Below, one piece after another: positions 15,105 through 32,000 of a DNA stretch of 32,000 nt; the first letter of the stretch is position 1, and every line of letters starts with the position of its first letter. The stretch is from NCBI RefSeq assembly GCF_003367075.2, contig NZ_CP065936.1:3510001-3542000 (forward strand), in the 5' to 3' direction. The translations under genes were made by a program, and so were the position numbers. The stretch comes from Cylindrospermopsis raciborskii Cr2010. Lineage in GTDB: Bacteria; Cyanobacteriota; Cyanobacteriia; Cyanobacteriales; Nostocaceae. Below the pieces are notes generated by a model that was not told where the DNA came from, ran no database searches, and saw only the letters and a list, made by a program, of their open reading frames with translations.

Positions 15105-15131
15105 GGGATAATAATCAAGCAGACAAGTAGG

Positions 15132-16036
15132 GTGACATTAATGTTGAACTTAGACCGCATCCTGAATCAAGAGCGACTGCTACGAGCAATGACTGGACTT
15201 AACCGCCAAGCATTCAACGAGCTGTTATCTCAGTTTGCTGATACCTATGAACGCACCGTGTTCAACTCCTTAGCAAACCGCAAACGTGCGCCCGGGGGCG
15301 GACGCAAGCCTACACTCAGAAGTATAGAGGAAAAACTATTTTATATCCTGCTGTACTGCAAATGTTATCCGACGTTTGACTTGCTGAGTGTGTTGTTCAA
15401 CTTTGACCGCTCCTGTGCTCATGATTGGGTACATCGACTACTGTCTGTGCTAGAAACCACTTTAGGAGAAAAGCAAGTTTTGCCAGCACGCAAACTCAGG
15501 AGCAGGAATTCACCAAAAGGTTTCCAGATGTGAAGGAGGTGATTGTGGATGGTACGGAGCGTCCAGTCCAGCGTCCTCAAAACCGAGAACGCCAAAAAGA
15601 GTATTACTCTGGCAAGAAAAAGCGGCATACATGCAAGCAGATTACAGTCAGCACAAGGGAGAAACGAGTGATTATTCTGACGAAAACCAGAGCAGGTAAA
15701 GTGCATGACAAACGGCTACTCCATGAATCAGAGATAGTGCAATACATTCCTGATGAAGTAGCAATAGAGGGAGATTTGGGTTTTCATGGGTTGGAGAAAG
15801 AATTTGTCAATGTCCATTTACCACACAAGAAACCGAAAGGTAAGGAGTTAACACAGCAGCAAAAGGAGGAGAATCGAGAACTCAGTCGTCAGCGAGTTGT
15901 GTGTGAGCACGCTCACTCTGGAATTAAGAGATATAACTGTGTACATTCTGTATATAGGAATCGTGTGACCGATTTTGATGATCAATTGATGTTGGTCAGT
16001 GCAGGGCTATGGAACTTCTATTTAGATGCAGCATAA
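15132..16036 (+). pseudogene. DDE transposase split by a frameshift (N-terminal HTH part plus C-terminal DDE part).
   Basis: ORF 15132-15533 (...GGGRKPTLRSIEEKLFYILLYCKCYPTFDLL...EKQVLPARKL) and ORF 15425-16036 (...EFTKRFPDVKEVIVDGTERPVQRP...YSGKKKRHTCK...) are the two halves of one transposase in frames 0 and -1. Family-like sequence switches frame between ~15495 and ~15508, consistent with a 1-nt deletion. Confidence 0.8.
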
Positions 16037-16080
16037 ATTCAATCGGGATGGGGGAAGTTCTGTCATCCGGAAATATGCTT

Positions 16081-16098
16081 TTATTTCCCAACAGCTCT
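16081..16098. repeat. Right terminal inverted repeat of the IS.
   Basis: The reverse complement of ttatttcccaacagctct is agagctgttgggaaataa, which pairs with 15087-15104. Confidence 0.7.
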
Positions 16099-16296
16099 CT
16101 TCAACTAAAACAAGATCTAACAGCGATAAGATAATACAAAGCTTATGTTGCAAACTATAATAAAAACTTATCATTCTTTTTTTTAAGTTTTTCAGGTGAA
16201 TTTTTGGAAAACTATTGACACAATTGGCATTATGTGAGACTGTTTTGTGGGATTCATTTTATTGACAGCCAACAGGCAAATATAGACAGAGTTAAT

Positions 16297-19200: not shown

Positions 19201-22200
19201 ACTCAGGAATGGCAATATACCTTTAATGATACCTATAATATAACCTCAGGGGAAACTGAAGAAGACTTTAATATTATTGGTTGGAATAGCAGCTATAGTA
19301 ATCAGCCCATTCCTGGGGTTGAAATGCGCCAATGGCTCAACAATACTCTACTGAGAATACAATCCCTCAAGCCTAGGAAAGTTTTGGAAATTGGTTGCGG
19401 TACGGGTATGATTTTATTAAATATTGCTCCCCAAGTAGAATCTTACTGGGGAACGGATTTTTCCCAAGCTGCAATTAATCGCCTGGATACTATTGTTAAA
19501 AACCGCTCTCTAAAAAACGTCAACCTACTAACTAGGGAAGCAATTGATTTTTCAGAAATTCCCACTGGTTATTTTGACACTGTTGTTATTAACTCTGTTG
19601 CGCAATATTTTCCATCAATTGAGTATTTGCAACAGGTCATTAAAAGTGTTTGGCAATTATTAAAAACCGGAGGAAGTTTATTTATTGGTGATAATCGAAA
19701 TTTGTCACTGTCAAATTATTTCTACGCTAGCGTTGCTTATTTTCAGGCTAATGACAACACTGATTGTGAAACATTTAAAACTCAGGTTAGACGCATTGCA
19801 AAAAAAGAGAACGAATTAATTATTGCTCCGCATTTCTTCACTGATTTAAGAAAATCATTTCCTGACTTAACAGCTGTAGAAATTCAAATTAAGTCGGAAA
19901 ATAATGAAAATGAGCTGACTAAATACCGTTATGATGTGATCTTACATAAGTTAGGTATATCAACAGAACAACCACCAGAAATTATCTGGCGAGATTGGGA
20001 GACTGACAATTTACAATTGACGGATTTAAAACAGCAAGTTATTGAAATGAGATCTATCGGTTGGCATAGTGTACCTAATGGTCGGCTAAGTAAAGATGCT
20101 GCCATTTACCAATGGATGTTAAAAAACAGCCACGAAAATGAACAAAAAACCATTGGTGAATTAAGAACTGTGCTCAATAACATTCATGAGCCAAAAGGGT
20201 TCAATCCAGCAGATTTTTATGCTATTGCTCAAGAAATTGGTTCGGAAGTAAGTATTAGTTATTCACCGGGAAAAGTAGATTGTTTTGATGTATGTTTTTA
20301 TCCTGTGAGCCACAAAAAATTCATGGTACCATCAATGCCAATTATCAATGATTTAAGTGATTCATTGGATCGAGATGATCACCCATATTGGATTGATCCC
20401 CTCCAAAGTAGATTTACCAAATTCCTAATTTCTCAATTGAAGCAAAGGTTAGAGGAGAAATTACCAGAATATATGTGTCCCTCGGCCTTTATGATTTTAG
20501 AAAATTTCCCTCTTACCCCCAGTGGTAAGCTGGACAGACGTGCCCTACCCATACCAGATCGGGATTTAACAATTAATCAACAATCCCTGGTGTTACCTAA
20601 AACTCCTACGGAACAGAAACTATCTCAACTATGGATGGATGTTTTAGGAATTGATAAAATTGGCGTTACGGAGGATTTCTTCCATTTGGGAGGACATTCA
20701 CTTTTAGCAACTAAATTGGTGTCTCGTATTAGGGAGGAATTTAATGTAGCCTTACCTTTACGGTCAATTTTTGAATATTCAACCATTGCTCGGTTAGGAG
20801 ACGAAATTGACTGTTTAATTAATGTAAATACTACTAAAACAGGCCCAGAAGATATTATTCCTGTTTCTAACCGAGAAAATTTACCCCTTTCTTTCTCCCA
20901 ATCTCGACTCTGGTTTTTAGATCTATTAGAAAAAGAAAATGCCGCGTATAATATATCAGTAGCTTTTCATTTAGAAGGAGATTTAAATGTAGATGCACTA
21001 CGAGAAAGCTGGCAAAATATTATTCAACGTCATGAGGTGTTGCGCACAACTTTCGATAATCTGCAAGGATCCCCAATTCAGACAGTTCATGACTGGTTGG
21101 AATTAAAATTAACCATAACAAATCTCAGTTGTTTAGACTTTCAAACCCAACAAGAAACATTGAGAAGGTCAATACAAGAAGTGGTTATTACTCCCTTTAA
21201 TCTTAAACAGCTACCATTACTACGTATCCATCTCTATCAATTATCTGACAATATTAGTGTTTTGTTGTTGGTCATACACCATATTATCGCTGATGGTTGG
21301 TCTTTGGGAGTCATGGTTAAAGAGTTATCCTTGTTCTACACGGCCATCTGTCAAAGAAATATCCCATCTATACCCCCTCTATCCATACAGTATGGAGATT
21401 TTGCCAATTGGCAACGGGAAGTTTTTCAGAAAACACAACTACCTATACAACTAGCTTACTGGAAACAAAAACTAACAGGTGCAAATCAAATTTTAGAACT
21501 ACCAACAGATTACCCTCGTTCCCCAATTCCGAGTTATCAAGGTAGTGCTGTAAACTTTGCAGTTGATCAACAAACCACTCAAGAATTTAAAAAACTATGC
21601 GAATCTCAAGGTGCCACTTTATTCATGGGTTTGTTGGTGGTATTTAGCATTTTGCTTATGCGCTATTCAGGACAAGAAGACTTATTAATTGGTACGCCAA
21701 TTGCTAACCGTAATCGTAAGCAGACCGAAGATTTAATCGGTTTTTTTGTCAATACTTTGGTCATCAGAAATAACTTGAGTGGTAATCCTAATTTTATCAA
21801 CTTACTCTCTAGAACTAAGGAAGAAACTCTACAAGCTTATGCTCATCAAGATGTACCCTTTGAAAAGATAGTAGAGGAAATAAATCCACAAAGAAATCTC
21901 AGTCAGCATCCATTATTTCAGGTAATGTTCGTCTGGCAAAATGCACCTATGAATAAGTTGGAACTACCTAACTTACAACTAGCTCCTTGGAGATTGGAAC
22001 AAAGATTAGCGAAGTTTGATTTGACCTTGTTAATGACGGAAACTGAACAGGGAATTGATGGAACATGGGAATATAGGACAGATTTATTTGCACTAGAAAC
22101 AATTAATAGAATGATCGGTCATTTTGAAACTCTATTAAAGGGTATTATTGCTGAACCACAAAAACCAATTACTCATTTACCTGTACTTACTAGCCACGAG

Positions 22201-24891
22201 AAAAATCAACTACTCTTTCAATGGAATCAAACGCAATTTGAGTACCCTTTGTATCAACAAAATAAGTGCCTGCATCAATTGTTTGAATTACAAGTAGAGA
22301 AAACACCTAATAATGTAGCTGTAGTTTTTAAAAATCAAAGTCTTACCTATTTTCAATTAAATCAAAGAGCTAATCAATTGGCCCATTATTTACAATCCCG
22401 TGGTGTCCGACCAGATGTATTGGTAGGAATTTGTATGGAGCGTTCATTAGAAATGGTAATTGGTTTACTGGGAATTTTAAAAGCTGGTGGTGCTTATGTT
22501 CCCATGGATTCCAATTATCCCCGGGAACGTCTTGACTTTATGTTAGTAGATGCTGGAATTTCTCTATTATTAACACAAGAAAACCAGGTCACAACTCTAG
22601 ATATTTTACCTCCGCACCAAATCATTTGCCTAGATAAGGAATGGCAAGTTATTGCTCAAGAGGATACACATAATCCCTCTACTAATTTAGTAGTAGAAAA
22701 TCTTGCATATCTTATCTACACATCTGGCTCGACTGGTCAACCCAAAGGAGTGATGATAAGCCATAGTGCTATTTGTAATCACATGTTGTGGATGCAAAAA
22801 ACCTTTAGTTTTGGGGAAAGGGAAAAAGTATTACAAAAAACACCTTTTAGTTTCGATGCTTCTGTATGGGAATTTTACGCACCTCTATTAACAGGTGGAC
22901 AGTTAATAATTGCCGAAAAAGATGGACACAAGGATGTTTCTTACCTGTTGAAATTAATTTGTGAGCAACAAGTAACAGTTCTACAAATGGTTCCTTCCTT
23001 ACTACAAATGTTCCTAGAATATGGGGAGATAGAAAATTGTCATTCCTTAACACATATCTTCTGTGGGGGTGAAGCTTTACCAGTAGCTATGGTAGAAAAT
23101 TTATTGAGCAAACTAAATGTTAACTTTCACAACCTCTATGGACCTACGGAAGCCTGTATTGATGCTACTTTTTTAAGCTTCACAAAAGAAAACAATCACT
23201 ATATTAAACAAAATATGCTTCCCATTGGTCGTCCCATCGCTAATACACAAACTTATGTTCTTGATGCTCACTTACAACCAGTTCCCATTGGGGTTCCAGG
23301 TGAACTATACATAGGTGGTATGGGACTAGCACGTGGTTATTGCCAACTTCCGCAATTAACTAGAGATAAGTTTATTGCTCATCCCTTTAGCGATAATCCA
23401 GATTCACGTCTTTATAAAACAGGAGACTTAGTTCGTTACCTTCCCGATGGAAACATTGAATTTATAGGACGCATTGACCACCAAGTTAAAATACGCGGTT
23501 TCCGCATTGAACTGGGAGAAATTGAAGCTGTATTGACTCAACATCCCAATGTACTGAATGCAGTTGTAGTTATTTCTGGAGACTCATCTGCCACTAACAG
23601 TTTAATTGCTTATTATGTAAGCACAGAAAAGCAATTTACCTCTTCGGGTGTGTTACGTGATTTCCTCAAAGAAAAGTTACCCGATTATATGATACCTAAC
23701 AGTTTTATAGTTTTAGACCATCTACCCATGACACCAAATGGGAAGATTGATAGGAAGCTATTGGCTGGGTTGAATATAAACAGGAATTTTGATGCTCATC
23801 AACATGTTTCCCCTCGCACACTTTTAGAATATAAACTAGTAGAAATATGGGAGGAAATTCTCCAAGTCAGTCCAATAAGTGTAACTGAAAACTTTTTTGA
23901 TTTAGGTGGTCATTCTCTTTTAGCCATCAGATTGATAGCTGCTATTGAGCAAAAGTTAAAATGTAATTTACCTGTGGTTTCTCTATTTAGAGAGGGGACT
24001 ATAGAGAAAATTGCCCTATTGTTAGACCAAGATCACCAAAAAGCAAGCAATCATTCAGATATTCTAATTCCTCTGCAAACTCAAGGCGATTTGCTACCTT
24101 TATTTTTAGTCCACCAAGCAGGAGGTTATGGTTTATCCTATTCGGTTCTAGCTGAAAAATTGGCTGTAGGTATGGGTAAAAAACTGCCCATCTATGCTAT
24201 TCAGTCACCTGGATTAGATGGTAAACAATCACCCTTAGAAAGCATTGAAGAAATGGCAAATACCTACATTCATACCATTCGAGAAATACAGCCCCATGGA
24301 CCTTACTTATTAGGTGGACATTCTTTAGGGGGATTAATTGCCTTTGCCATGGCTAGTCAATTGGAAGCTATGGGAGAACAAATTGAGCGCGTATTGATTA
24401 TAGATACCCATCCACCTATGCCAACGGATGAAACTATAGCTTCTTTGGAGGATAATGCAGGAATTATTTGTTTTATGGTGGAGCAAATAGCATTATTTTT
24501 TAATAAAAATGTGACTATCAATTATCAGACAATTTCTAGTTTGGATCAAGATTCCCAGTTAGACTATGTTGCACAAACATTAGAACAACATAATCTGATT
24601 CCACCCAACTCAGGAAATAGTTTAATTGCTCGTCTCATTAAGGTTTATAAGGCTAATTTACGCGCTAGTGTAGTCTATCAACCACCTGTAAATAGGTCTA
24701 ATATTACACTATTTATAACTCCCTCCCTAGCAGCTAAATTTCCCAATGACCCCACTGTTGGATGGCAAAAGTTAACCACTCAAAAAGTCCAAGTTTGTCG
24801 CGTTATGGGTGAACATCAAACTATGTTAAAAGAACCTGAAGTGGAAAATTTGGTCACGGAAATCATGGCTACATTAGTAAACACTCCTTAA
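16297..24891 (+). CDS. Terminal bimodular NRPS: docking extension - C - A(Thr) with embedded N-methyltransferase - T - C - A(Gln) - T - TE.
   Basis: The track ORF begins at GTG 16234; I prefer ATG 16297 (MTNFSQADDIDLL...). Motifs: HHIIADAW 16807-16830; TSGSTGKPKG 18238-18267; FDFSVWE 18370-18390; NMYGITETTVH 18667-18699; SAM motif VLEIGCGTG 19381-19407; carrier Ser 20698-20700 (GGHSL); HHIIADGW 21277-21300; TSGSTGQPKG 22720-22749; FDASVWE 22852-22872; carrier Ser 23914-23916; TE GHSLG with Ser at 24322-24324. Specificity codes are DFWNIGMVHK (Thr) and DAWQFGLIDK (Gln). Confidence 0.95.
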   Translation: MTNFSQADDIDLLGLLLEEEGIELEIKEVVPRVGSTEAPTSFQQRRLWFLYELEPTSSAYNICSIFDLKGTLNITALRVAFKQLQQRHESLRTTFMDVDGEPWQKIHANSATELRLEDWSNDRSEDKRPEIIAEIARHESDHQFNLQTGPLIRAQLFKIESKQHILSINLHHIIADAWSVGIILEEIAMLYQAEISKTPMALPELKFQYTDYALWQKGNFQNSNILEKSLTYWEKQLAQLPTLQFPLDFPRPRLQTFRGGLIKFEISKETTNRIRNFIVKEGATLFMFLMAVFQTLLSRYTGQEDIAVGTSIANRPSDSENLIGFFVNMLVIRTNLADEPNFNSLLKTVKKTILSAFEHKEIPFETLVEKLNLPRDTSRNPLFQIAFTLLNAPKPQFGTGDLEVCILATQEAARFDLELFITETEDTLNGAVSYNIDLLKRETVERLARHFCQLLESVLAQPEIPVSRLPFLLSEEIAVLAPSQPAQTFPVHFCLHDIFTEQAKLRPQQTALIFGQERLTYSEVNYRANQLAHYLMRVGVKPEARVGLWLSRSLDLVIGIIAILKAGGVYVPFDPNYPRDRITYMLEDSQIRVLLTHSEFEAQIPFDFTNNNILTIFIDKYKSEFTQEVTTEPEVLILPDNAAYIIYTSGSTGKPKGVVVTHRHVVRLMLSTEKWFKFNAKDVWTLFHSCAFDFSVWEIWGALFYGGVLVIVPYLISRSPEEFYNLLCEEKVTVLNQTPSAFQQLIQAESTLCREGELELRYVIFGGEALDLASLEPWFERHDDQFPLLVNMYGITETTVHVTYLPLTFKDVKKGSGSLIGKQIPDLSLYILDRHLQPVPIGVVGEMYVGGAGVTRGYFHRPQLTAERMIPNPFATNDLTSVRLYKTGDLARFLDNGNIEYIGRNDHQVKIRGFRIELGEIEALIKSHPEVRDALVIAREESKEDVRLDAYIIPINQIANTETLTQEQTQEWQYTFNDTYNITSGETEEDFNIIGWNSSYSNQPIPGVEMRQWLNNTLLRIQSLKPRKVLEIGCGTGMILLNIAPQVESYWGTDFSQAAINRLDTIVKNRSLKNVNLLTREAIDFSEIPTGYFDTVVINSVAQYFPSIEYLQQVIKSVWQLLKTGGSLFIGDNRNLSLSNYFYASVAYFQANDNTDCETFKTQVRRIAKKENELIIAPHFFTDLRKSFPDLTAVEIQIKSENNENELTKYRYDVILHKLGISTEQPPEIIWRDWETDNLQLTDLKQQVIEMRSIGWHSVPNGRLSKDAAIYQWMLKNSHENEQKTIGELRTVLNNIHEPKGFNPADFYAIAQEIGSEVSISYSPGKVDCFDVCFYPVSHKKFMVPSMPIINDLSDSLDRDDHPYWIDPLQSRFTKFLISQLKQRLEEKLPEYMCPSAFMILENFPLTPSGKLDRRALPIPDRDLTINQQSLVLPKTPTEQKLSQLWMDVLGIDKIGVTEDFFHLGGHSLLATKLVSRIREEFNVALPLRSIFEYSTIARLGDEIDCLINVNTTKTGPEDIIPVSNRENLPLSFSQSRLWFLDLLEKENAAYNISVAFHLEGDLNVDALRESWQNIIQRHEVLRTTFDNLQGSPIQTVHDWLELKLTITNLSCLDFQTQQETLRRSIQEVVITPFNLKQLPLLRIHLYQLSDNISVLLLVIHHIIADGWSLGVMVKELSLFYTAICQRNIPSIPPLSIQYGDFANWQREVFQKTQLPIQLAYWKQKLTGANQILELPTDYPRSPIPSYQGSAVNFAVDQQTTQEFKKLCESQGATLFMGLLVVFSILLMRYSGQEDLLIGTPIANRNRKQTEDLIGFFVNTLVIRNNLSGNPNFINLLSRTKEETLQAYAHQDVPFEKIVEEINPQRNLSQHPLFQVMFVWQNAPMNKLELPNLQLAPWRLEQRLAKFDLTLLMTETEQGIDGTWEYRTDLFALETINRMIGHFETLLKGIIAEPQKPITHLPVLTSHEKNQLLFQWNQTQFEYPLYQQNKCLHQLFELQVEKTPNNVAVVFKNQSLTYFQLNQRANQLAHYLQSRGVRPDVLVGICMERSLEMVIGLLGILKAGGAYVPMDSNYPRERLDFMLVDAGISLLLTQENQVTTLDILPPHQIICLDKEWQVIAQEDTHNPSTNLVVENLAYLIYTSGSTGQPKGVMISHSAICNHMLWMQKTFSFGEREKVLQKTPFSFDASVWEFYAPLLTGGQLIIAEKDGHKDVSYLLKLICEQQVTVLQMVPSLLQMFLEYGEIENCHSLTHIFCGGEALPVAMVENLLSKLNVNFHNLYGPTEACIDATFLSFTKENNHYIKQNMLPIGRPIANTQTYVLDAHLQPVPIGVPGELYIGGMGLARGYCQLPQLTRDKFIAHPFSDNPDSRLYKTGDLVRYLPDGNIEFIGRIDHQVKIRGFRIELGEIEAVLTQHPNVLNAVVVISGDSSATNSLIAYYVSTEKQFTSSGVLRDFLKEKLPDYMIPNSFIVLDHLPMTPNGKIDRKLLAGLNINRNFDAHQHVSPRTLLEYKLVEIWEEILQVSPISVTENFFDLGGHSLLAIRLIAAIEQKLKCNLPVVSLFREGTIEKIALLLDQDHQKASNHSDILIPLQTQGDLLPLFLVHQAGGYGLSYSVLAEKLAVGMGKKLPIYAIQSPGLDGKQSPLESIEEMANTYIHTIREIQPHGPYLLGGHSLGGLIAFAMASQLEAMGEQIERVLIIDTHPPMPTDETIASLEDNAGIICFMVEQIALFFNKNVTINYQTISSLDQDSQLDYVAQTLEQHNLIPPNSGNSLIARLIKVYKANLRASVVYQPPVNRSNITLFITPSLAAKFPNDPTVGWQKLTTQKVQVCRVMGEHQTMLKEPEVENLVTEIMATLVNTP
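19200..20400 (+). other. N-methyltransferase domain inserted between A-domain motifs A8 and A9 of the Thr module.
   Basis: About 400 aa are inserted after GRNDHQVKIRGFRIELGEIE...LDAYIIP and before LPEYMCPSAF...PSGKLDRRAL. The insert contains the SAM-binding motif VLEIGCGTG and the sequence GGSLFIGDNRN. Boundaries are approximate. Confidence 0.85.
24070..24888 (+). other. Thioesterase (TE) release/cyclisation domain.
   Basis: The C-terminal ~270 aa contain LFLVHQAGGYGLSY and the nucleophile elbow GGHSLGG. Confidence 0.85.
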
Positions 24892-24979: not shown

Positions 24980-25717
24980 ATGAGTAAAATTCCCCAGATT
25001 ATCCATCAAATTTTTTTTCTAGGAGCAGCAGCAGTACCGGAAAAATATCGACGTTATCAACAAACAGTTTTACAAAATCATCCCCATTGGGAATACCAAT
25101 TTTGGGATGAACGCAAAGCTAGAGGATTTATGACAGATAATTATCCCTGGTTCCTACCAGTATTTGATGCTTATCCTCATGATATTCAGCGTCGTGATGC
25201 CATACGTTATTTCATACTCTATCACTATGGTGGGTTTTACTTAGATATGGATGTAGAAAGTATAAAACCACTGGATAATTTATTGGCAGATTTCGAGCTT
25301 ATTCTATCCAAGTTGGTAGGTTTTAGTAATGCAATTATGGGTAGTATTCCCAAGCATCCTCTGTGGTTGAAAGTGTTTGAGGAATTAAAAAACCGTCAAC
25401 ATAACTCAGACCATAAAATAATGCCACTTTATGTTGGACATAGTACTGGACCAATTATGCTTAACGACTGCGTGGTTGGGGGTAAATTTGATCAAAATTC
25501 TAATGTTCTAGTCTGTCCAGGATATATTTTTGAGCCAGGTGCACCCATGGAACTTAATGGTAAAATCTTCAAGAGTCACGTTAACCCAGAGACTTATACT
25601 ATACATCACATGACCACTTCTTGGTTACCTAGAAAACACCAAATAGCCAGGTTTTTATTCGGGTTGATGTTAGAACCATACTGGTTTTTTCGATCTTTAT
25701 TTAAAGGCAAAATTTAA
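24980..25717 (+). CDS. Glycosyltransferase with a DXD sugar-binding region (Och1/Sur1-like; mannosyltransferase-like).
   Basis: The 245-aa ORF contains IPQIIHQIFF, RRDAIRYFILYHYGGFYLDMDVE (DXD motif) and HPLW, the pattern of the Gly_transf_sug family. Confidence 0.7.
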   Translation: MSKIPQIIHQIFFLGAAAVPEKYRRYQQTVLQNHPHWEYQFWDERKARGFMTDNYPWFLPVFDAYPHDIQRRDAIRYFILYHYGGFYLDMDVESIKPLDNLLADFELILSKLVGFSNAIMGSIPKHPLWLKVFEELKNRQHNSDHKIMPLYVGHSTGPIMLNDCVVGGKFDQNSNVLVCPGYIFEPGAPMELNGKIFKSHVNPETYTIHHMTTSWLPRKHQIARFLFGLMLEPYWFFRSLFKGKI

Positions 25718-25814
25718 TTTATGAACCAAAACTTTCGGGAGAACCACAAAAAAACAATTGGAGGACGGCTAGACAAAATTGAGTTCTACTTTAGATGAAA
25801 ATTTTAGGTACTGA

Positions 25815-25822
25815 GCGATCGC
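25815..25822. repeat. HIP1 palindrome GCGATCGC.
   Basis: Exact octamer, in the intergenic region upstream of the GT39 gene. Confidence 0.9.
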
Positions 25823-25853
25823 TTCAAAAAAAGTCGTTAGGAAATTAGGACAA

Positions 25854-27497
25854 ATGCCAAATTTAGAATTAAAAACAAAAACACCAACTTGGTTAAAAAT
25901 TGCAGTAGTAGTTCTGATAGGACTAAGTATTTTCTGTCGCTGGGTAAGTTTAGACAAAAAAATTTACTGCTGCGACGAAAACTGGACATCTGTAGCAATT
26001 TCTGGACACACATTAGTTGAGTTACAAAAGGAACTTTCTGAACATGAAGGCATAATTCCTATCAATAACTTTCAAAAGTATCAACACATAAGTCCAGAAA
26101 AGCATGTAAGTGATACAGTTAATTATTTAATCACCTCAGACCCCCAACATCCCCCATTGTACTACATTATGGTCAGACTATGGGCCCAGATATTTGGTGA
26201 TTCCCCCACGGGAATAAGGAGTTTATCGGCAATTATTAGTTTGTTAATATTTCCGGGTGTATTTTGGATATGTTTAGAGTTGTTTGAGTCTGGAATTGTG
26301 GCATGGATAGCAATGGGATTAATTGCTGTTTCTCCCTTACAGCTATATTTTGCTCAAGAGGCTCGCCAATATGCTTTATGGATGGTAGAAATTCTCATAT
26401 CCAGTACTGCTTTATTGAGATCCATCAGAAAAGAAAATACACTCAGCTGGGTTTTGTATAGCCTAACCTTGATTCTGGGACTATATACCCACTTATTAAC
26501 AGGTTTCATGATTATATCTCACGGAATTTATGTGATTATTCAACAACAGTTTCGTCTCACCAAAACCTTGATTAACTATATAATTTATACAATCATAGCT
26601 TTGTTGATATTTTTACCTTGGCTAATTGTATTCATAAATCATCTCGATACAGGAGTATCATTAATTTCTGGCTACAGTGTTAGATATACGGATATTCCCT
26701 TAGAGTTAATTGCCGTTTTTCTTGTTCGAGCTACTAGGACATTTTTTGATCTTGGTTTGGCTAAACCATTAGGATCCTTTAGTTATTTTTCTGATGAAGG
26801 GGCTTTGTACTATACTCTTATTTCCCTGATCTTCGGCTTATTTTTAATAAGCTATCTCATATTTTGTTTTTGTAAGGATATTAAAAATGAAACTTATCTT
26901 TTTCTTTTTTGTCTAGGGGGATTTCCTAGTATATTATTGATCTTATATGATATAATTTTGGGTGGATCTCGTTCCATACAAGTACGATATGAATTGCCCT
27001 TGTATATCTGTTTAGAAATTGCCATAGCATATATTTTAAGTTTTGCCTTTCCAATTTTACAAGAAAAGACTTGGCGGAGAAAAATAGCCCAATTAATGAT
27101 GGTATTACTTATTTTTTCCGGACTAGTTTCTGATGTCAAATTCTTTCAGTCCCAAAATTCGTGGACGCAATCAGGTAGCACATTTATCATGGAAACAATT
27201 CAGGCTATTAACGAAGCAGACTCACCTTTATTGGTAATAAATAATGCTGCTGTACATTTGGGAGGAATATTAGCTTTGACTCATTATTCCCCAGGAATTT
27301 CTCTGCTAACGAATAAAGATGTTGAACCTTTAGTAATTCCGGAGAATTATAATCAGATTTTTTTTGTAGATAACAATAGTCATTTATTTCGTAAACTAAA
27401 GGATAATCAAAACTATTGTATGAAAACAATACAAAAAATTACCACTAATCACTCAGTAACTGTAGGAGGTTTATGGAGATTTGAGAAGAAGGTTTAG
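25854..27497 (+). CDS. Polytopic membrane GT-C glycosyltransferase, family 39 (PMT/ArnT-like), using a polyprenyl-phosphate sugar donor.
   Basis: The 547-aa ORF has many hydrophobic segments. It has a first-loop acidic DE motif (CCDENWT) and the family-typical HPPLYY and SPLQLYFAQEARQYALW segments. Confidence 0.7.
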   Translation: MPNLELKTKTPTWLKIAVVVLIGLSIFCRWVSLDKKIYCCDENWTSVAISGHTLVELQKELSEHEGIIPINNFQKYQHISPEKHVSDTVNYLITSDPQHPPLYYIMVRLWAQIFGDSPTGIRSLSAIISLLIFPGVFWICLELFESGIVAWIAMGLIAVSPLQLYFAQEARQYALWMVEILISSTALLRSIRKENTLSWVLYSLTLILGLYTHLLTGFMIISHGIYVIIQQQFRLTKTLINYIIYTIIALLIFLPWLIVFINHLDTGVSLISGYSVRYTDIPLELIAVFLVRATRTFFDLGLAKPLGSFSYFSDEGALYYTLISLIFGLFLISYLIFCFCKDIKNETYLFLFCLGGFPSILLILYDIILGGSRSIQVRYELPLYICLEIAIAYILSFAFPILQEKTWRRKIAQLMMVLLIFSGLVSDVKFFQSQNSWTQSGSTFIMETIQAINEADSPLLVINNAAVHLGGILALTHYSPGISLLTNKDVEPLVIPENYNQIFFVDNNSHLFRKLKDNQNYCMKTIQKITTNHSVTVGGLWRFEKKV

Positions 27498-27531
27498 AGC
27501 AATATTAAATAAAAGTTAGTAAATCAACAGT

Positions 27532-27987
27532 ATGATAAATAAAATTAGCTTAAGTCGGTACGGAATATTTATTAGTCGGTTAATTCGTTTTGCGTTGGTG
27601 GGTTTTAGCGGTGTAATAGTGGATCTAGGAGGTTTTTATTTTCTACATAGCCTATTAGGTTTAAACCTAACTCCTAGTTCGATGCTATCAACCGAATTAG
27701 CAATCATTAATAATTTCTTCTGGAATGATATTTGGACATTTGGTGACGTAGTTCAGAAAGAAAATTTAGTTTTAGACAACAGTCACAGATTACAAAGGTT
27801 TTTTAAGTTTAACTTAATTTGTTTGTTGGGTTTAATTCTCAATAGTTTAATTGTGAACTTTTTGGTTTATAAGTTTGCTATAAATGCTTATCTAGCCAAA
27901 TTGATAGCCATCATTTGTGTGATTTCCTGGAATTTTGGTATGAACATGAGGTTTAATTGGCAGGTGATGGAGAAAAAAGAATCATGA
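27532..27987 (+). CDS. GtrA-family small membrane protein (polyprenyl-phosphate-sugar handling/flipping).
   Basis: The 151-aa ORF has four hydrophobic segments, RFALVGFSGVIVDLGGFYFL, and the GtrA hallmark NNFFWNDIWTF. Confidence 0.8.
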   Translation: MINKISLSRYGIFISRLIRFALVGFSGVIVDLGGFYFLHSLLGLNLTPSSMLSTELAIINNFFWNDIWTFGDVVQKENLVLDNSHRLQRFFKFNLICLLGLILNSLIVNFLVYKFAINAYLAKLIAIICVISWNFGMNMRFNWQVMEKKES

Positions 27988-28781
27988 CCAATAATAGCAG
28001 TAAGGACTTAGTATTAGCCCCTTCTGGAAGCCTAGAAATTACCGCATTGTCGGAAGTTTCATCATCAGTTAAGCCAGTTTATTTGTCATTGGTTATCCCG
28101 ACCTATAACGAAAGCAAAAACATTTTGGCAGTGGTCTATCTCTTGAGTGATTTGCTCAATGAGGCCTTAGTAGATAATTACGAATTGATTGTGGTGGATG
28201 ATGATAGCTATGATCGCACCTGGGAAATTGCTCAGGAACTAACCAAAGATTACCCCCGTCTGCGGGTGATGCGTCGTCAGGGAGAACGAGGCCTATCTAC
28301 AGCAGTAATTAGAGGTTGGCAGATAGCTCAAGGGGAAATACTAGGAGTAATTGATGGTGATTTACAGCATCCACCAGAAGTATTACTCAAGTTATTGAAA
28401 GCGATGGATCAAGAAGCAGATATTGCCGTGGCCAGTCGTAATATAACTGGAGGTGGAACCAGTGATTGGCAATGGCATAGGCGGTTTTTGTCACGGGGAG
28501 CGCAATTTTTAGGACTGCTGATTTTGCCTGATATCGTCAGTCGGGTTTCCGATCCGATGAGTGGTTATTTCTTAGTGCGTCGAAAGGCGATCGCACAGAA
28601 ATTAATGAGTCCTTTGGGCTATAAGATTTTAATTGAAGTCCTGGGGCGAGGTGAGATTAACCATATTATTGAGGTTGGCTATGTGTTTCAGGAACGTCAA
28701 GAAGGAGCAAGCAAAGTGACTTGGCGACAGTATATAGAATACCTGATACATTTAGTGCGACTGAGGTTTCATGTGGTATAG
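27984..28781 (+). CDS. GT2 polyprenyl-phosphate glycosyl (mannosyl/glucosyl) synthase, Dpm1/GtrB/ArnC-like.
   Basis: The sequence contains LSLVIPTYNESKNI, VVDDDSYDRT, DGDLQHPPE and SGYFLVRR. I prefer ATG 27984, which overlaps the GtrA stop as ATGA (27984-27987), over the track's TTG start at 27957. Confidence 0.82.
   Translation: MTNNSSKDLVLAPSGSLEITALSEVSSSVKPVYLSLVIPTYNESKNILAVVYLLSDLLNEALVDNYELIVVDDDSYDRTWEIAQELTKDYPRLRVMRRQGERGLSTAVIRGWQIAQGEILGVIDGDLQHPPEVLLKLLKAMDQEADIAVASRNITGGGTSDWQWHRRFLSRGAQFLGLLILPDIVSRVSDPMSGYFLVRRKAIAQKLMSPLGYKILIEVLGRGEINHIIEVGYVFQERQEGASKVTWRQYIEYLIHLVRLRFHVV
28587..28594. repeat. HIP1 palindrome GCGATCGC.
   Basis: Exact octamer, within the GT2 gene. Confidence 0.9.
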
Positions 28782-28849
28782 TACAAATTTTCTTTATTTT
28801 TCACATCTAAAGCACTGTTAGCTTCGTGTAAAATAACATATTTAGGTTT

Positions 28850-28866
28850 GGCAACTGGGTGTTGCC
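28850..28866. terminator. Weak hairpin between the convergent GT2 and toxin genes.
   Basis: ggcaac-tgggt-gttgcc forms a 6-bp stem followed by atttatt. The stem is short, so confidence is low. Confidence 0.25.
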
Positions 28867-28868
28867 AT

Positions 28869-29369
28869 TTATTCTTCCTCCCCTGCTTGTTTGAGAGCAA
28901 AATCAATGACAACTTGACTCAATCTAATCTTGTGACTAAGCATATTCTTAATAGCTTCTTTCACGGAAAGAGATGGATTTTGTTGTTTGGCTTTCAGTAT
29001 AATTCCAATAGAACCAGTTAAGTTAAGTCCGTTTAATCGGGCAATTCTTCTGCCTACAGATTCATCAATACAGACTGTTGTTAGGTTATTATCGAGAGCG
29101 AACTGGATGACGGATGCTTCCCCTAAATCTAAAGAATTGAGGAGAAAGGGGGTGATGGTCAAAGGAATTCTCTGCTTATTTAGCCAACTAGCATGGTTAA
29201 ATTCAGAAACGGCAAAGTTTACTGACCCACCTTGAAGAATTTCCTGACAGACTTCAAAAGTGACAAATATTTCTTCATATAATGATGATAAAATAGTTAA
29301 ATCACCCCAAGCAGCAACTAGGGCAATTAAGGGAGATGTGTTGATGACGATTTTCTCGGTTTTAGGCAT
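28869..29369 (-). CDS. DUF3368 / PIN-like predicted nuclease (type II toxin candidate).
   Basis: The 166-aa ORF begins with IVINTSPLIALVAAW, as PIN-like DUF3368 proteins typically do. It overlaps the upstream UPF0175 gene by 8 bp. Confidence 0.7.
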   Translation of the reverse strand: MPKTEKIVINTSPLIALVAAWGDLTILSSLYEEIFVTFEVCQEILQGGSVNFAVSEFNHASWLNKQRIPLTITPFLLNSLDLGEASVIQFALDNNLTTVCIDESVGRRIARLNGLNLTGSIGIILKAKQQNPSLSVKEAIKNMLSHKIRLSQVVIDFALKQAGEEE

Positions 29370-29616
29370 TTGCTAAATCAGATAATAATTCTTCTTCTGT
29401 TAGGTCAATAAGCGGAATATTGTAATCAGCAAGTTTCATTATAAAGGTAGTTCTGTTTACGCCTAATAAACTAGCAGCCATACCAGATGAAATCCGCTTC
29501 ATTTCAAAAAGTTTGATTGCCATTGCCCATTTAGCCTCCTGCTCAAATTGCTCTTTGGTGCTACCTAAAGCATCAGGAAAGGTATCAGGGTAGGTAATGG
29601 TTAACTGTAAGGGCAT
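29362..29616 (-). CDS. UPF0175-family antitoxin candidate.
   Basis: The 84-aa ORF shows the UPF0175 pattern: KWAMAIKLFEMKRISSGMAASLLGVNRTTFIMKLADYNIP. It is translationally coupled to the DUF3368 gene. Confidence 0.75.
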   Translation of the reverse strand: MPLQLTITYPDTFPDALGSTKEQFEQEAKWAMAIKLFEMKRISSGMAASLLGVNRTTFIMKLADYNIPLIDLTEEELLSDLANA

Positions 29617-29769: not shown

Positions 29770-30834
29770 ATGACGATCGTTTTAGTAACAGGTTCAGCTG
29801 GATTAATTGGTTCTGAATCAGTTCGATTTTTCTGCAAGCGTGGATTTAGCGTGGTTGGCATTGATAACAATATGCGCTCTTTTTTCTTTGGAGAAGGTGC
29901 TTCAACCGAATGGAATCGTGATCGCCTTTTAGAGGAATATGGTGATCAATACATTCACCATAACGTTGATATTCGGGCTTCCGAAAGCATATCCAACATC
30001 TTTAAAACCTATGGTACAGATATTGGTTTGATCATTCACACTGCGGCTCAACCATCCCACGATTGGGCGGCTAAAGATCCCTATACCGACTTTTCCGTCA
30101 ATGCCAATGGCACTTTAGTTTTATTAGAAAACACGCGGCAATACTCTCCGGATGCGGTCTTTATCTTTTGCTCGACCAACAAAGTCTATGGAGATACTCC
30201 GAATCGCTTACCGTTACTAGAAGAAGAACTGCGCTGGGAAATTAACCAAACCCATCCGTACTACCAAGGAATTGATGAAAACATGAGTATAGATCATTCT
30301 ATGCACTCTTTGTTTGGAGCTTCAAAGTTAGCGGCGGACGTACTAGTGCAGGAATATGGACGCTATTTCAACATGAAGACCGTTGCATTTCGAGGAGGAT
30401 GTTTGACAGGACCAAGCCACTCTGGTACTCAACTACACGGCTTTTTATCTTACCTGATGAAATGTACAATGACCGGCGAACCTTATCAGATACTTGGCTA
30501 CAAAGGCAAGCAGGTTCGTGATAATATCCACAGCTACGATTTAGTAAATGCCTTTTACCATTTTTACCAAAACCCGCGAGTTGGTGAAGTATACAACATA
30601 GGTGGAAGTCGTTTTAGTAATTGCTCAATGTTGGAAGCGGTTCAGCACTGCCAAGCAATTACTGACAAAAAGCTGAACTGGCAATACATAGAAGTGAACC
30701 GCATAGGCGACCACATTTGGTGGATTAGTGATGTTCAAAAATTTAAAAATCATTATCCTCGTTGGGAGCTAAGTTACACAATAACTGATATTTTGAAAGA
30801 GATTTTTACCAAAAATGTTAGCCGCTGGAACTAG
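29770..30834 (+). CDS. Extended-SDR NAD-dependent sugar-nucleotide epimerase/dehydratase (CDP-paratose-2-epimerase-like).
   Basis: The sequence contains [16 protein letters not shown] (Rossmann GxxGxxG), STNKVYGD, a catalytic YxxxK-type FGASKLAAD, and [10 protein letters not shown] prefer ATG 29770 to the track's TTG start at 29710. Confidence 0.8.
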
Positions 30835-30869: not shown

Positions 30870-32000
30870 TTATAGCTTGCTTGTCATGTAATGCCAAATT
30901 TCATCCACTGCCCTTTTAACTCCACCAGCAGCATGACAGGCATCGCCCAATCGACGAAGATTAACTCTAAAAGAATTATTAGTTAAAAGTTGCTGTGCAG
31001 TTTGTCGTAGATTTTCTACCGTACTGTCTTTTAAAAACATCATAATTCCTGCACCCTGCTCCTCAATACGACGAGAAATAATTTCCTGCTCATAGGTTTG
31101 TGGTACTGCAATCATCGGTACTGAATAGGAAATAGCTTCTCTTGTGCCACCAGCTCCTCCGTGCATAATAAACAAACTGGCACGTTCTAAAATTTTTAAT
31201 TGAGGAACCGTGCCATTGGGTCTGATGATAAAGTTTTCGGGAATATCCCCCAAAACACTTACATCTATGGTAGGACTTAATATCATTACTACTTGAGCAT
31301 CAATATTACCAAATGCCTGAATACAGTTCTGATAGAATCTCACTCCTGGATCGTGAGCAGTGCCAAAAGAAATAAGAATTACCTTGTCCTTTTGTAGTTT
31401 TTCCAAAGGAAAATCAAATTCGATACCCCTTATAAGGTTACAAGGTCCAACGAAATGAAATTGCTGACTAAACTGATTAAACTTATAGTGATAGGGTTGC
31501 AGTTCTACTGGCAAGTAACATAAGTTTAACGGTTCAATATTGGTAAATGTATCTACAAACTTAATTGGTGGCAGTCCATAGGTTAACCGCAATTCTTTTT
31601 GGTATTTTCGATAATATTTCATACCCTCTGCAGCTTGTTTTAAAAAAAAGGGCAGTTTTTTTCTCAACCACGGACATTCATAAAATGTTTGGGGGGTAAA
31701 AGCAGCTGTAGAGATAGAATTTATGGCGGGAATATTGAGAATTTGCCCCAATAATCTCCCCCAAAGACATAGGGAATCATGAATAATATAATCTGGTTTC
31801 TCTTTACTCACAGACTCTATTAATTCTGGGAGCATCTGATGGGCACACCAGATTAACGAGGGAACTAAAGACATTTCATTTTCTGCAGGTGGCGCTGTTT
31901 CAGGATTTAGGGTTGGATAAGGGCGAAACTTGGCACCAAAGGATAATATTTCTCCTTCAAAGCTAGGTACTTCATAGTAAATTACCTCTTCGCCTCTGTC
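30870..32000 (-). CDS. GT1 glycosyltransferase of the MGT/UDP-glycosyltransferase family, 5' end cut by the window edge.
   Basis: The track ORF starts at an internal Met (31874), but the frame stays open to position 32000 (DRGEEVIYYEVPSFEGEILSFGAKFRPYPTLNPETAPPAENE-MSLV...). The C-terminal donor-binding signature is HGGAGGTREAISYSVPMIAVPQTYEQEIISRRIEEQGAG. Confidence 0.85.
   Translation of the reverse strand, partial: DRGEEVIYYEVPSFEGEILSFGAKFRPYPTLNPETAPPAENEMSLVPSLIWCAHQMLPELIESVSKEKPDYIIHDSLCLWGRLLGQILNIPAINSISTAAFTPQTFYECPWLRKKLPFFLKQAAEGMKYYRKYQKELRLTYGLPPIKFVDTFTNIEPLNLCYLPVELQPYHYKFNQFSQQFHFVGPCNLIRGIEFDFPLEKLQKDKVILISFGTAHDPGVRFYQNCIQAFGNIDAQVVMILSPTIDVSVLGDIPENFIIRPNGTVPQLKILERASLFIMHGGAGGTREAISYSVPMIAVPQTYEQEIISRRIEEQGAGIMMFLKDSTVENLRQTAQQLLTNNSFRVNLRRLGDACHAAGGVKRAVDEIWHYMTSKL

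Follow-up and report, generated by a model that had tools for sequence, protein, structure and literature searches.

We suggest that the genes following the terminal NRPS gene of the hassallidin cluster, hasT, hasF, hasE and hasD, include a module that makes lipid-linked mannose and places it on hassallidin, a reading to which we assign a probability of about 50%. The predicted chemistry, in which lipid-linked mannose is made and then transferred outside the cytoplasm, is well supported, and the predicted enzymatic identity of HasD, HasE and HasF is highly probable; hassallidin as the acceptor is plausible but unproven, at even odds. New here are the recognition of HasD and HasE as a split synthase of the dolichyl-phosphate mannose synthase (DPMS) type, that of HasF as a GT-C enzyme nearest ArnT in structure, and the existence of HasD-HasF fusions.

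The module within the hassallidin gene cluster

The window, by which we mean the whole 32,000-nucleotide stretch of DNA that was analysed, is the published hassallidin (has) antifungal gene cluster in a genome of the Raphidiopsis/Cylindrospermopsis raciborskii type. The original prediction had treated the product as an uncharacterised lipopeptide, which the published cluster (PMC5834425) corrects, and had rightly expected it to be Thr-rich; hassallidin is Thr-rich and glycosylated. Orthologous hasT, hasF, hasE and hasD occur in the has clusters of Anabaena sp. SYKE748A and C. raciborskii CS-505 (Vestola, 2014; Pancrace, 2017; Abreu, 2018, PMC5834425), which share with the window the neighbours hasV, hasU, hasY, hasP, hasQ and hasA; unlike them, the window has an IS between hasV and hasY and no hasC. 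The four genes therefore already have published names, and the lengths of their products in the window (245, 547, 151 and 265 aa for HasT, HasF, HasE and HasD) equal those given for CS-505, CS-508 and CR12 (PMC5834425, Table S5), where annotation goes no further than “glycosyl transferase family 2”, “GtrA family protein” and, for HasF, “putative membrane protein”.

Upstream of the module, hasY (16234–24891, + strand) encodes the terminal NRPS (C-A-MT-T-C-A-T-TE), in which Pfam detects two Condensation, two AMP-binding and two PP-binding domains and one thioesterase, with a methyltransferase at residues 1043–1163; it is called as 2864 aa on contigs matching the window exactly. As originally described, four co-directional genes follow: hasT (24980–25717), hasF (25854–27497), hasE (27532–27987) and hasD (27984–28781) all lie on the + strand, with gaps of 88 bp (hasY-hasT), 136 bp (hasT-hasF) and 34 bp (hasF-hasE), and an ATGA at 27984–27987 (+) is read from the sequence as the stop of hasE overlapping the start of hasD. 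Scanning by consensus only, we found no terminator-like hairpin in the three intergenic gaps and one, followed by a T-run, 68 bp past hasD (28849–28867, +). Further downstream lie hasP (29770–30834, +), an NAD-dependent sugar epimerase/dehydratase (PF01370, E = 8e-37) that in this context would serve nucleotide-sugar supply and is 354 aa both on contigs matching the window exactly and in Table S5 (PMC5834425), and hasQ (30870–32000, −), a GT1 macrolide-type (MGT) Leloir glycosyltransferase (TIGR01426, E = 5e-75) that is cut by the window end and whose frame is intact by comparison with the 402-aa gene of locus L002. We note that the locus is plastic, with an IS in the hasV/hasY spacer, presence or absence of hasC and a toxin-antitoxin-like pair within the cluster, and that the gene order is G-F-E-D-C-B-A in Anabaena and Y-T-F-E-D in the window.

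The arrangement of the four genes is not due to chance. In both Anabaena cylindrica (L004) and Dolichospermum flos-aquae (L005), whose proteins are 64–80% identical, hasF, hasE and hasD stand in the same order and the last two again overlap by 4 bp.

A predicted split synthase and GT-C transferase

HasD, a soluble GT2 protein (PF00535, E = 2e-36), matches the catalytic domain of the Pyrococcus furiosus DPMS (5mlz_A, residues 23–246) at E = 3e-59 with 44.6% identity and retains every listed DPMS residue for donor, metal and polyprenyl-phosphate binding (PMC12992685), namely D124GDLQHPP131 (DGD codons at 28353–28361), S151-R152, R166, S170 and K214-I-L; its matches to GtrB (1.6e-11) and ArnC (1e-10) are far weaker. 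HasE, a four-helix membrane protein of the GtrA family (PF04138, E = 1.5e-25), matches residues 252–372 of the same chain, its membrane domain, at E = 1.7e-13; polar residues still line the pocket (D31, N61 and N134), and the ELxIxNNFxWNDxWTF motif is conserved. The closest non-has relatives of HasD (65–73% identity) are cyanobacterial GT2+GtrA fusions of about 410 aa, and HasE is 48–51% identical to the C-terminal half of such proteins, which are widespread in cyanobacteria. Because HasE is a homologue of the DPMS membrane domain, HasE and HasD would form one split, order-swapped synthase, and the proposal of a synthase served by a separate GtrA flippase must be revised. By homology, HasD is the predicted cytoplasmic catalytic subunit, which would convert GDP-mannose and polyprenyl phosphate into polyprenyl-P-mannose, and HasE the predicted GtrA-like membrane domain of that enzyme type, here a separate protein and translationally coupled to HasD via the overlap; that the sugar is mannose is inferred from homology alone.

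Homology shows HasF to be a membrane transferase of GT-C fold in which the Asp-Glu pair past helix one is invariant. All 14 PDB matches of its AF2 model (pLDDT 79, pTM 0.81) at E ≤ 0.001 in Foldseek are GT-C enzymes, the best being ArnT (5f15, 5e-6). The candidate catalytic pair, Asp41-Glu42 (codons at 25974–25979, +), is invariant in 94 of 94 aligned homologues (48–98% identity to the window protein) and lies past a helix at 12–30, at the start of another at 41–50; D96-P-Q-H-P-P101, R108, D116, R171, Y173 and R378 are invariant as well. The C-terminal alpha/beta domain, of about 110 residues, may be periplasmic, judging by analogy and a crude positive-inside count. Pfam, DPMS and fold matches together bear out the assignment of the last three genes to a GT-C transferase, a GtrA-family protein and a synthase. 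Three independent, diverged HasD-HasF fusion ORFs (P0066, L020 and L023, the first two 78% identical) tie the synthase to the transferase; other has-type genes accompany two of them, namely hasC and hasE at L023 and, at L020, hasE, one gene each for an NRPS and an MFS protein, and an ORF of 679 aa where hasB would stand.

The acceptor of the mannose

We propose that HasE anchors HasD at the membrane and/or carries the mannosyl-phosphate head group across to the outer side, and that HasF would then pass the mannose to a periplasmic acceptor, most likely hassallidin during or after its export through the cluster's transporters. Hassallidin A bears mannose, N-Me-Thr and the fatty-acid 3-OH are the sites of sugar attachment, and hassallidins have up to three sugar positions, the acetylated one being the M3 hexose; membrane AT3 acyltransferase genes adjoin or lie near hasF in Planktothrix serta and Tolypothrix. 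The target of HasF might be the N-methyl-threonine mannose (position M3) or a hexose of the fatty-acid-linked glycan, the remaining sugars being installed in the cytoplasm by HasT and HasP/HasQ. HasT is the DXD-motif enzyme expected as the first gene (PF04488, E = 3e-22; D89-M-D91, codons 25244–25252), a GT32-like Leloir glycosyltransferase that matches the Och1 alpha-1,6-mannosyltransferase (9n3s) at E = 7e-8 and has orthologues 73–84% identical in P. serta, Nostoc UIC 10607 and Aulosira laxa. It resembles GDP-mannose-type GT32 enzymes and could alone supply the N-Me-Thr mannose, which speaks against hassallidin as the acceptor of HasF.

Across six lineages and heavy rearrangement, HasF recurs in NRPS clusters of the has type: those of Raphidiopsis, Anabaena, Dolichospermum, Tolypothrix and Nostoc, where HasE comes with it, and that of P. 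serta. The expected synteny with orthologous NRPS clusters thus held in that the module recurs in other cyanobacteria, but HasD was not found within 10 kb in Tolypothrix, Nostoc UIC 10607, Scytonema or P. serta, and the has-like cluster on an A. laxa plasmid is missing all three proteins while encoding HasT and a HasX-like GT2. Strains without the NRPS genes keep a 62-aa HasF fragment or nothing (PMC5834425, Table S5). NRPS association is confined to clades of at least 44% identity to HasF: a second clade (44–50%) comprises GT-C and GtrA pairs within other NRPS clusters (L010, L022, L024), and an NRPS neighbour occurs in 0 of 67 loci of the 33–39% housekeeping clade, where a fused synthase lies nearby in 7 of the 29 loci with enough flank. 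For L008 and L018, two members of the HasF clade, no NRPS gene lies closer than 10 kb. To judge by this distribution, lipopeptide clusters seem to have recruited a copy of a cyanobacterial housekeeping set in which a fused synthase is paired with a GT-C enzyme. The decay of HasF with NRPS loss, the clade-limited association, the fusions and the Ram29 precedent discussed below count for the transfer of mannose to hassallidin; the one-hexose product of P. serta, the A. laxa cluster, the gaps in HasD and the NRPS-free L008 and L018 count against hassallidin as the acceptor. The product of P. serta, hassallidin E, bears a single hexose (its mass is 1410.58, that of hassallidin A 1382.52), so that either HasT or the apparently intact HasF, or both, adds no stable sugar there.

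A rival view is that the acceptor lies in the envelope, HasD, HasE and HasF mannosylating LPS core or lipid A, peptidoglycan or a surface protein in ArnC/ArnT- or RgtE/RgtA-like fashion, so that the producer better tolerates or exports its membrane-active lipopeptide, with hassallidin sugars coming from HasT, HasQ and HasX only. Leloir enzymes are available for those sugars, P. serta has two candidate transferases for a single one, ArnT is the best structural match of HasF, UniRef calls the P. serta orthologue “RgtA/B/C/D-like”, and L008 and L018 stand apart from any NRPS gene; the 33–39% relatives, adjoining a housekeeping synthase with no NRPS nearby, point to a cellular glycoconjugate as the ancestral acceptor. 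The has-like cluster of A. laxa nevertheless does without the module, and HasF decays upon NRPS gene loss, which is compatible with both readings. Sterols are, to our knowledge, generally absent from cyanobacteria. Since hassallidin permeabilises only sterol-containing membranes, release being near-complete at 0.8 µM with cholesterol and modest at 30 µM without (PMC12473245), self-protection, which had been offered as the alternative role, seems unneeded, and we consider envelope remodelling rather unlikely.

That HasF is a GT39 enzyme of the protein O-mannosyltransferase (PMT) type acting on peptide Thr hydroxyls, with GtrA as a separate flippase and in place of the Leloir route, as first put forward, is unlikely; of the labels first given to the four genes, GT39 alone did not hold. 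Its acidic pair in the first loop is PMT-like, the predicted donor is polyprenyl-P-mannose and the N-Me-Thr of hassallidin is mannosylated; however, Pfam matches only the generic PMT_2 model (PF13231, E = 5e-12), with no match to PF02366 or PMT_4TMC, solved PMT sequences are unmatched even by the family profile at E < 10, and the fold scores of ArnT, OST subunits and ALG12 equal or exceed that of Pmt4. GtrA here is the synthase's own membrane domain, encoded separately, and the presence of HasT and HasQ implies that the GT-C enzyme acts besides cytoplasmic glycosyltransferases, not instead of them. Least credible is that the genes are passengers of a recombination-prone island shared with the has genes, serving an acceptor other than hassallidin in general protein O-mannosylation or exopolysaccharide decoration: the plasticity of the locus and L008 and L018 would fit, but HasF and HasE are kept in has-type clusters of six or more genera with differing gene orders, the 44–50% clade pairs sit in other NRPS clusters, and the housekeeping clade shows no NRPS association.

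Relation to known glycosylation systems

For the transfer of lipid-linked mannose to hassallidin, the precedent that had been invoked, Ram29 and Dbv20, is real: like Tcp15 and MppH-I, these are GT-C mannosyltransferases from NRPS clusters of actinomycetes that depend on polyprenyl-phosphomannose, and enzymes of the Ram29 type mannosylate NRPS products (PMC4635501). As described, they resemble HasF in being integral-membrane GT-C proteins encoded in NRPS lipo(glyco)peptide clusters, with several helices in the N-terminal part and a soluble domain at the C terminus, which in the Ram29 group is proposed to bind the aglycone on the outer side of the membrane (PMC4635501). Their polyprenyl-P-mannose is proposed to come from Ppm1 synthases (PMC4635501), whereas a synthase and its GtrA partner are part of the has cluster itself; the acidic pair lies in the first loop of HasF and is reported in the second of Ram29, and the host is a Gram-negative cyanobacterium, not an actinomycete.

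Adjoining genes for a GT2, a small GtrA-family protein and a GT-C transferase also make up GtrA/GtrB/GtrC, ArnC/ArnE-F/ArnT and CsbB/GtcA/YfhO, from which the has module differs in its synthase, of DPMS and not GtrB/ArnC type (3e-59 versus 1e-10 to 1e-11) and devoid of membrane helices of its own in HasD, and in its presumed acceptor, a secondary metabolite in place of O antigen, lipid A or teichoic acid. HasD has the catalytic motifs of the type-III DPMS of P. furiosus (PDB 5MLZ, 9EP0), and HasE corresponds to its GtrA-like domain of four helices, including the polar pocket for the mannosyl-phosphate head group; the has version is bacterial, encoded by two genes and reversed in order, membrane part first, with the gate residue Phe338 replaced by Ile and DAD by DGD. 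PMTs (CAZy GT39, PF02366) resemble HasF in GT-C fold, lipid-phosphate-mannose donor and Asp-Glu pair in the first extracytoplasmic loop, but HasF has no PMT/PMT_4TMC or MIR domain and no detectable similarity to solved PMTs, and its fold matches them no better than it matches ArnT, OST or ALG enzymes.

Gene content of the has locus

The four co-directional genes that the original prediction placed behind the terminal NRPS gene are all present on the plus strand. The NRPS gene hasY, an ORF of 2885 codons, ends at 24891 and is followed by hasT (24980-25717; PF04488, DXD sugar-binding glycosyltransferase), hasF (25854-27497; PF13231, PMT_2), hasE (27532-27987; PF04138, GtrA/DPMS transmembrane domain, E=1.5e-25) and hasD (27984-28781; PF00535, GT2). 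The predicted gaps of 88, 136 and 34 bp, and the ATGA overlap at 27984-27987 that joins the stop of the third gene to the start of the fourth, were likewise confirmed. In a consensus scan, none of the three intergenic gaps contained a terminator-like hairpin and one was found 68 bp beyond hasD, a pattern match only, which would fit a single transcript.

Around hasT, hasF, hasE and hasD lie hasV (minus strand; an NRPS of 2153 aa), hasU (8311-8529; MbtH), hasY, hasP, hasQ and hasA. The part of the has cluster in the window also includes an NRPS gene cut by the left window end (3-6539, minus strand), as well as genes for an Asp/Asn hydroxylase and an SDR. The lengths published for has proteins in the C. 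raciborskii strains CS-505, CS-508 and CR12 equal those found here: HasV (2153 aa, NRPS), HasT (245 aa, glycosyl transferase), HasF (547 aa, putative membrane protein), HasE (151 aa, GtrA family), HasD (265 aa, GT family 2), HasP (354 aa, NAD-dependent epimerase), HasQ (402 aa, MGT family glycosyltransferase) and HasA (555 aa, ABC transporter) (PMC5834425, Table S5). Since the protein lengths agree, the window holds part of the published hassallidin cluster, and the locus itself is already in print. The 547-aa HasF occurs with identical sequence and the same gene order on three NCBI assemblies, the closest named HasF homologues come from Raphidiopsis curvata and C. raciborskii, as do homologues at 98-99% identity, and the Planktothrix serta orthologues carry the database name "involved in Hassallidin biosynthesis". 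A truncated hasQ, as the ORF list suggested, was ruled out: the gene is cut by the window edge.

An insertion sequence of 1010 bp (15088-16097) lies within the divergent hasV/hasY spacer. Its terminal inverted repeats (GAGTTGTTGGAAAATAA / GAGCTGTTGGGAAATAA) are imperfect, and it carries two transposase ORFs that overlap (15132-15533, HTH_Tnp_4; 15425-16036, DDE_Tnp_4). It stands in place of 77 bp found in three comparison contigs (L001-L003) that are otherwise 99.85% identical, and could affect how both NRPS operons and hasT-F-E-D are expressed. The hasD/hasP interval holds a toxin-antitoxin-like pair on the minus strand (28869-29616), consisting of a UPF0175 gene (29362-29616) and a DUF3368 gene (28869-29369). 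The methyltransferase gene hasC, which accompanies hasF and hasE in seven has-type loci examined in other strains and genera, is missing in the window (28782-29080) and in L002, and is present in L001 (12944-14288) and L003. Its neighbours there are a partial hasQ copy of 123 bp (window 31128-31250) and the DUF3368 gene, called as 83 aa in those two contigs versus a 166-aa ORF in the window.

HasD, HasE and HasF as a candidate lipid-linked mannose pathway

Judged from sequence, hasE and hasD very probably encode, between them, a type III-like dolichyl-phosphate mannose synthase (DPMS) that has been split into two genes with its domain order swapped. The two proteins are read as halves of one enzyme type because both match the single chain of the Pyrococcus furiosus type III enzyme (PDB 5MLZ) and both match fused cyanobacterial proteins. 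HasD matches 5MLZ over residues 23-246 (E=3e-59, 44.6% identity), compared with 1.6e-11 for GtrB and about 1e-10 for ArnC, while HasE matches the GtrA-like membrane domain of the same chain (residues 252-372, E=1.7e-13). Among the relatives of HasD, nine clusters of short has-type orthologues rank first and are followed by cyanobacterial single chains of 400-420 aa (65-73% identity), in which the GT2 catalytic part is N-terminal and the C-terminal GtrA half is 48-51% identical to HasE.

HasD keeps all of the metal/diphosphate-site and lipid-phosphate-site residues listed for type III enzymes (PMC12992685), save an Ala to Gly change within DAD: its D124-G-D-L-Q-H-P-P131 corresponds to the type III motif 89-DADxQHPP-96 with both Asp, Gln, His and Pro-Pro retained. 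The type III lipid-phosphate binders Arg117 (SRY), Arg131, Ser135 and Lys178 (KIL) (PMC12992685) have equivalents in S151-R152-N, R166, S170 and K214-I-L. When HasE orthologues are aligned with the C-terminal domains of the fused proteins and with the Pyrococcus domain, ELxIxNNFxWNDxWTF stands out as a nearly invariant motif. The three pocket positions of HasE are all polar (Asn248 to D31, Asn277 kept as N61, Arg341 to N134), and Asn at the Arg341 position is found in all type III enzymes outside the Thermococcales (PMC12992685); the gate residue Phe338 is replaced by Ile (I131). Type III enzymes are single monomeric chains, whereas HasE and HasD come from two genes with the membrane part upstream, and the 4-bp overlap between them is conserved in Anabaena and Dolichospermum. 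Crystallographic work from 2026 proposed that the membrane domain binds flipped Dol-P-Man, and the roles of anchor and flippase are therefore compatible for HasE.

Fused GT2+GtrA proteins of about 410 aa are widespread in cyanobacteria (proteins P0130-P0240; loci L031, L035, L039, L043, L050, L052, L054 and L061), their architecture and catalytic motifs agree with archaeal type III DPMS, and a PMT_2 GT-C gene frequently lies within 3.6 kb of the fused gene. Type III DPMS has been concluded to be confined to archaea (PMC12992685); the bacterial counterpart that cyanobacteria commonly carry is a by-product of this analysis with wider use.

The third component, HasF, is best described as a GT-C enzyme by its predicted fold. 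By sequence, HasF was matched to no solved structure in the PDB, which includes Pmt1, Pmt2 and Pmt4 (phmmer E<1; 29-sequence profile E<10). An AlphaFold model built from 29 sequences reached pLDDT 58, and one built from 94 sequences, which we used, reached pLDDT 79 and pTM 0.81. Searched against the PDB with Foldseek, this model retrieved GT-C enzymes in 14 of 14 matches at E <= 0.001, the other matches with probability of at least 0.9 being GT-C or GT-C-like. ArnT ranked first (5e-6), followed by STT3, ALG12, Pmt4, ALG9, PglB and DPY19, with TM-scores of 0.41-0.48; Pmt4 was the sixth-ranked match (5e-5). A DE motif, which the original prediction had proposed to look at, is present in loop 1: Asp41-Glu42, immediately past the first helix, shows no variation among the 94 HasF homologues and is a candidate for the catalytic role, and DPQHPP (96-101), R108, D116, R171, Y173 and R378 are equally invariant. 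The model is helical to about residue 432 and continues into an alpha/beta domain of some 110 residues (437-547; pLDDT mostly 78-92). A crude hydropathy and charge count places the RRK-rich loop 405-409 inside the cell, which would put this C-terminal domain outside the cytoplasm.

The classification of HasF within GT39, part of the original prediction, gained no specific support. Neither PF02366 (PMT) nor PF16192 (PMT_4TMC) matched, and relatedness to characterised PMTs was not detected in the PDB (phmmer E<1; 29-sequence profile E<10). The database label "glycosyltransferase family 39 protein" was probably assigned through the match to the generic PMT_2 model, since PF13231 is the only family model to match HasF (E<0.01).

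That synthase and transferase belong to one system is indicated by three diverged single ORFs of 828-832 aa in which a HasD-type catalytic domain is fused to the N-terminus of a HasF-type GT-C. They comprise P0066 (831 aa; Logan contig L012, 520-3015), a protein 78% identical to it (828 aa; L020, 9125-11611) and a third of 832 aa (L023, 9098-11596). Such a fusion makes topological sense, as HasF is predicted to have its N-terminus in the cytoplasm. In L020 an NRPS gene and an MFS gene precede the fusion, and a GtrA gene and a 679-aa ORF in the hasB position follow it; the fusion loci thus read D-F (then E in L020), versus F-E-D in the window. The existence of synthase-transferase fusion proteins is itself of wider use. 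Taken together, we put the probability that the hasD/E/F module has the chemistry assigned here at roughly 0.85.

Distribution and origin of the module

Genomic contexts were rebuilt from exact-protein look-ups and one metagenome scan. Among homologues at least 53% identical to HasF, the gene order is Y-T-F-E-D in the Raphidiopsis window, F-E-D-C-B-A adjoining NRPS genes in Anabaena cylindrica, and G-F-E-D-C-B-A in Dolichospermum flos-aquae. Tolypothrix NIES-4075, from the genus of hassallidins A and B, has hasF flanked by two NRPS genes, with hasC and hasE and without hasD; Nostoc UIC 10607 has C-F-E-B...A-Q-T-U-V, again without hasD; and Planktothrix serta PCC 8927 has MFS-F-AT3 acyltransferase adjoining NRPS genes, E and D being absent in the approximately 39 kb seen. 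The expected conservation of the trio beside orthologous NRPS clusters thus stands for hasF, which sits at has-type NRPS clusters in all six cases, but not for the trio as a unit: hasE or hasD is missing in some, and all three are missing from Aulosira laxa. In C. raciborskii strains without the NRPS genes, HasF is reduced to a 62-aa fragment or gone (PMC5834425, Table S5). The hasF of P. serta sits at the edge of a horizontally acquired has cluster, between the genes for an MFS exporter and an AT3 membrane acyltransferase (L015, 8668-12820), and the HasF homologues in L018 and L020 likewise have an MFS gene directly upstream.

There are three exceptions to the association. The plasmid-borne has-like cluster of A. 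laxa NIES-50 encodes HasT (84% identity), a HasX-like GT2 and PKS proteins, and lacks F, E, D, C and Q; it lies on a conjugative plasmid (AP018308.1, 223629-283290; L013/L014) and includes three PKS genes. At L018, a 62% HasF homologue has an MFS gene as its sole companion. In Scytonema hofmannii (L008), hasC, hasF and hasE occur with transporter genes inside an apparent nif-interrupting element, with no NRPS gene within 10 kb. This set (5563-21030), in which the hasC, hasF, hasE, MFS and ABC transporter genes adjoin a serine recombinase gene, lies between nitrogenase gene fragments as if it were cargo of an excision element.

At lower identity (44-50%), GT-C and GtrA genes are paired within other NRPS clusters, which suggests that membrane-bound tailoring may be common among cyanobacterial lipopeptide clusters. 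In these non-has clusters (L010, from Nostoc sp. KVJ3, L022 and L024) the GT-C is 47-50% identical to HasF and the GtrA gene is directly downstream, followed in L010 by an MBOAT acyltransferase gene. The metagenome scan yielded 67 loci with a GT-C 33-39% identical to HasF, and NRPS, hasC, hasT and hasQ genes were found near none of the 67. Of these loci, 29 have 4 kb or more of flank on both sides, and 7 of the 29 carry a fused synthase gene no more than 3.6 kb from the GT-C. From these NRPS-free loci, some with a fused synthase nearby, we take the synthase/GT-C pairing to be ancestral and housekeeping, and the NRPS-linked HasF clades to be derived from it. A recurring cassette upstream of HasF-family genes, comprising a carbamoyltransferase, SxtJ, DUF5989, an SGNH/AlgX-like protein and a GT-C (L006, 6232-11635; L011, 6342-13293, with two GT-C genes in tandem), suggests additional periplasmic sugar decoration; one copy lies inside a has-like cluster and one apart from any NRPS.

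The acceptor and known systems

Hassallidins are well-studied antifungal glycolipopeptides with a cyclic peptide, glycosylated at the N-methyl-threonine and the fatty-acid 3-hydroxyl. Hassallidin A carries mannose, and in hassallidin B the fatty acid bears an extra rhamnose. The sugar positions number up to three (M1-M3), M3 being a hexose that is frequently acetylated and is the only sugar of the simplest variants (PMC4413203). HasD, HasQ, HasT and HasX have been listed in the literature as glycosylation genes, and the accounts of the has cluster covered here gave no sugar-by-sugar assignment of enzymes.

With HasT, HasP/HasQ and HasD/E/F, the window has three transfer systems for at most three sugar positions. 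We posit that HasP and HasQ, an epimerase/dehydratase and a macrolide-type GT1, would place the fatty-acid-linked pentose or deoxyhexose (M2), that HasD and HasE would supply the predicted donor, polyprenyl-P-mannose, and that HasT and HasF would serve the remaining two hexose positions between them. Two points favour HasF as the enzyme that would install the N-methyl-threonine mannose (M3): M3 is the site of the hassallidin A sugar identified as mannose, and M3 is the acetylated sugar, with genes for membrane AT3 acyltransferases beside or close to hasF in P. serta and Tolypothrix. Against this, HasT resembles GDP-mannose-type GT32 enzymes, and it is present in every has-type cluster with the relevant part visible (Raphidiopsis, Nostoc UIC 10607, A. 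laxa and P. serta). The argument that a universal transferase installs the universal sugar, which would assign the N-methyl-threonine mannose to HasF, was dropped: the A. laxa has-like cluster lacks HasF, and HasT, no less widespread than HasF, occurs alongside it in the one-hexose producer P. serta.

The P. serta product, hassallidin E, carries one hexose (mass 1410.58; hassallidin A, at 1382.52, is two CH2 lighter), and there HasF retains every invariant residue and HasT is present too. At least one of the two thus adds no stable sugar in P. serta, and for this reason we give hassallidin as the acceptor of the HasF-transferred mannose only an even chance, well below our estimate for the chemistry of the module. 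The main rival is an ArnT- or Rgt-like modification of the envelope that would protect the producer from its own product; the membrane activity of hassallidin depends on sterols (PMC12473245), however, and this weakens the case for self-protection.

If hassallidin is indeed the acceptor, the locus would permit what we tentatively propose, at somewhat poorer odds, as a periplasmic finishing step: the exported lipopeptide is mannosylated through a polyprenyl-phosphate-mannose pathway that the cluster itself encodes and that was copied from a cyanobacterial housekeeping pair of type III-like synthase and GT-C, the sugar is then acylated by membrane acyltransferases, and the same probably applies to other cyanobacterial lipopeptides whose clusters pair a GT-C with GtrA (L010, L022 and L024). 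We know of no natural-product cluster reported to encode a complete donor pathway for a lipid-linked sugar, and of none in a Gram-negative producer; the has cluster, if the proposal is true, would be the first on both counts. Among searchable open-access papers we found none that joins hassallidin to GtrA, and two that join it to a mannosyltransferase, which by title and abstract are a review of antifungal peptides and a study of the Candida cell-wall proteome; the primary papers on the has cluster (Vestola 2014 and Pancrace 2017) may already state the idea. Reading hasD/E/F as a lipid-linked mannose pathway is a concrete assignment that is cheap to test (a knockout and a 162 Da shift), accounts for the recurrence of a "membrane protein" and a "GtrA" alongside the has genes, and would put part of the tailoring outside the cytoplasm, which is relevant to heterologous expression and glyco-engineering.

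With GT39 PMTs, HasF has in common the loop-1 Asp-Glu, but neither the PMT/PMT_4TMC domains nor sequence relatedness were found in it. In predicted mechanism, the trio is one of the three-component Gtr/Arn-type systems, which likewise combine a GT2 synthase, GtrA and a GT-C with a loop-1 acidic residue; their acceptors are envelope glycoconjugates, whereas the has context suggests a secreted lipopeptide. In context, HasF resembles Ram29, Dbv20 and MppH-I of actinomycete NRPS clusters, as a GT-C membrane enzyme with a predicted soluble C-terminal domain. Unlike these, the has trio brings its own donor synthase and GtrA partner, and the has-type genes show split, swapped or fused domain arrangements.
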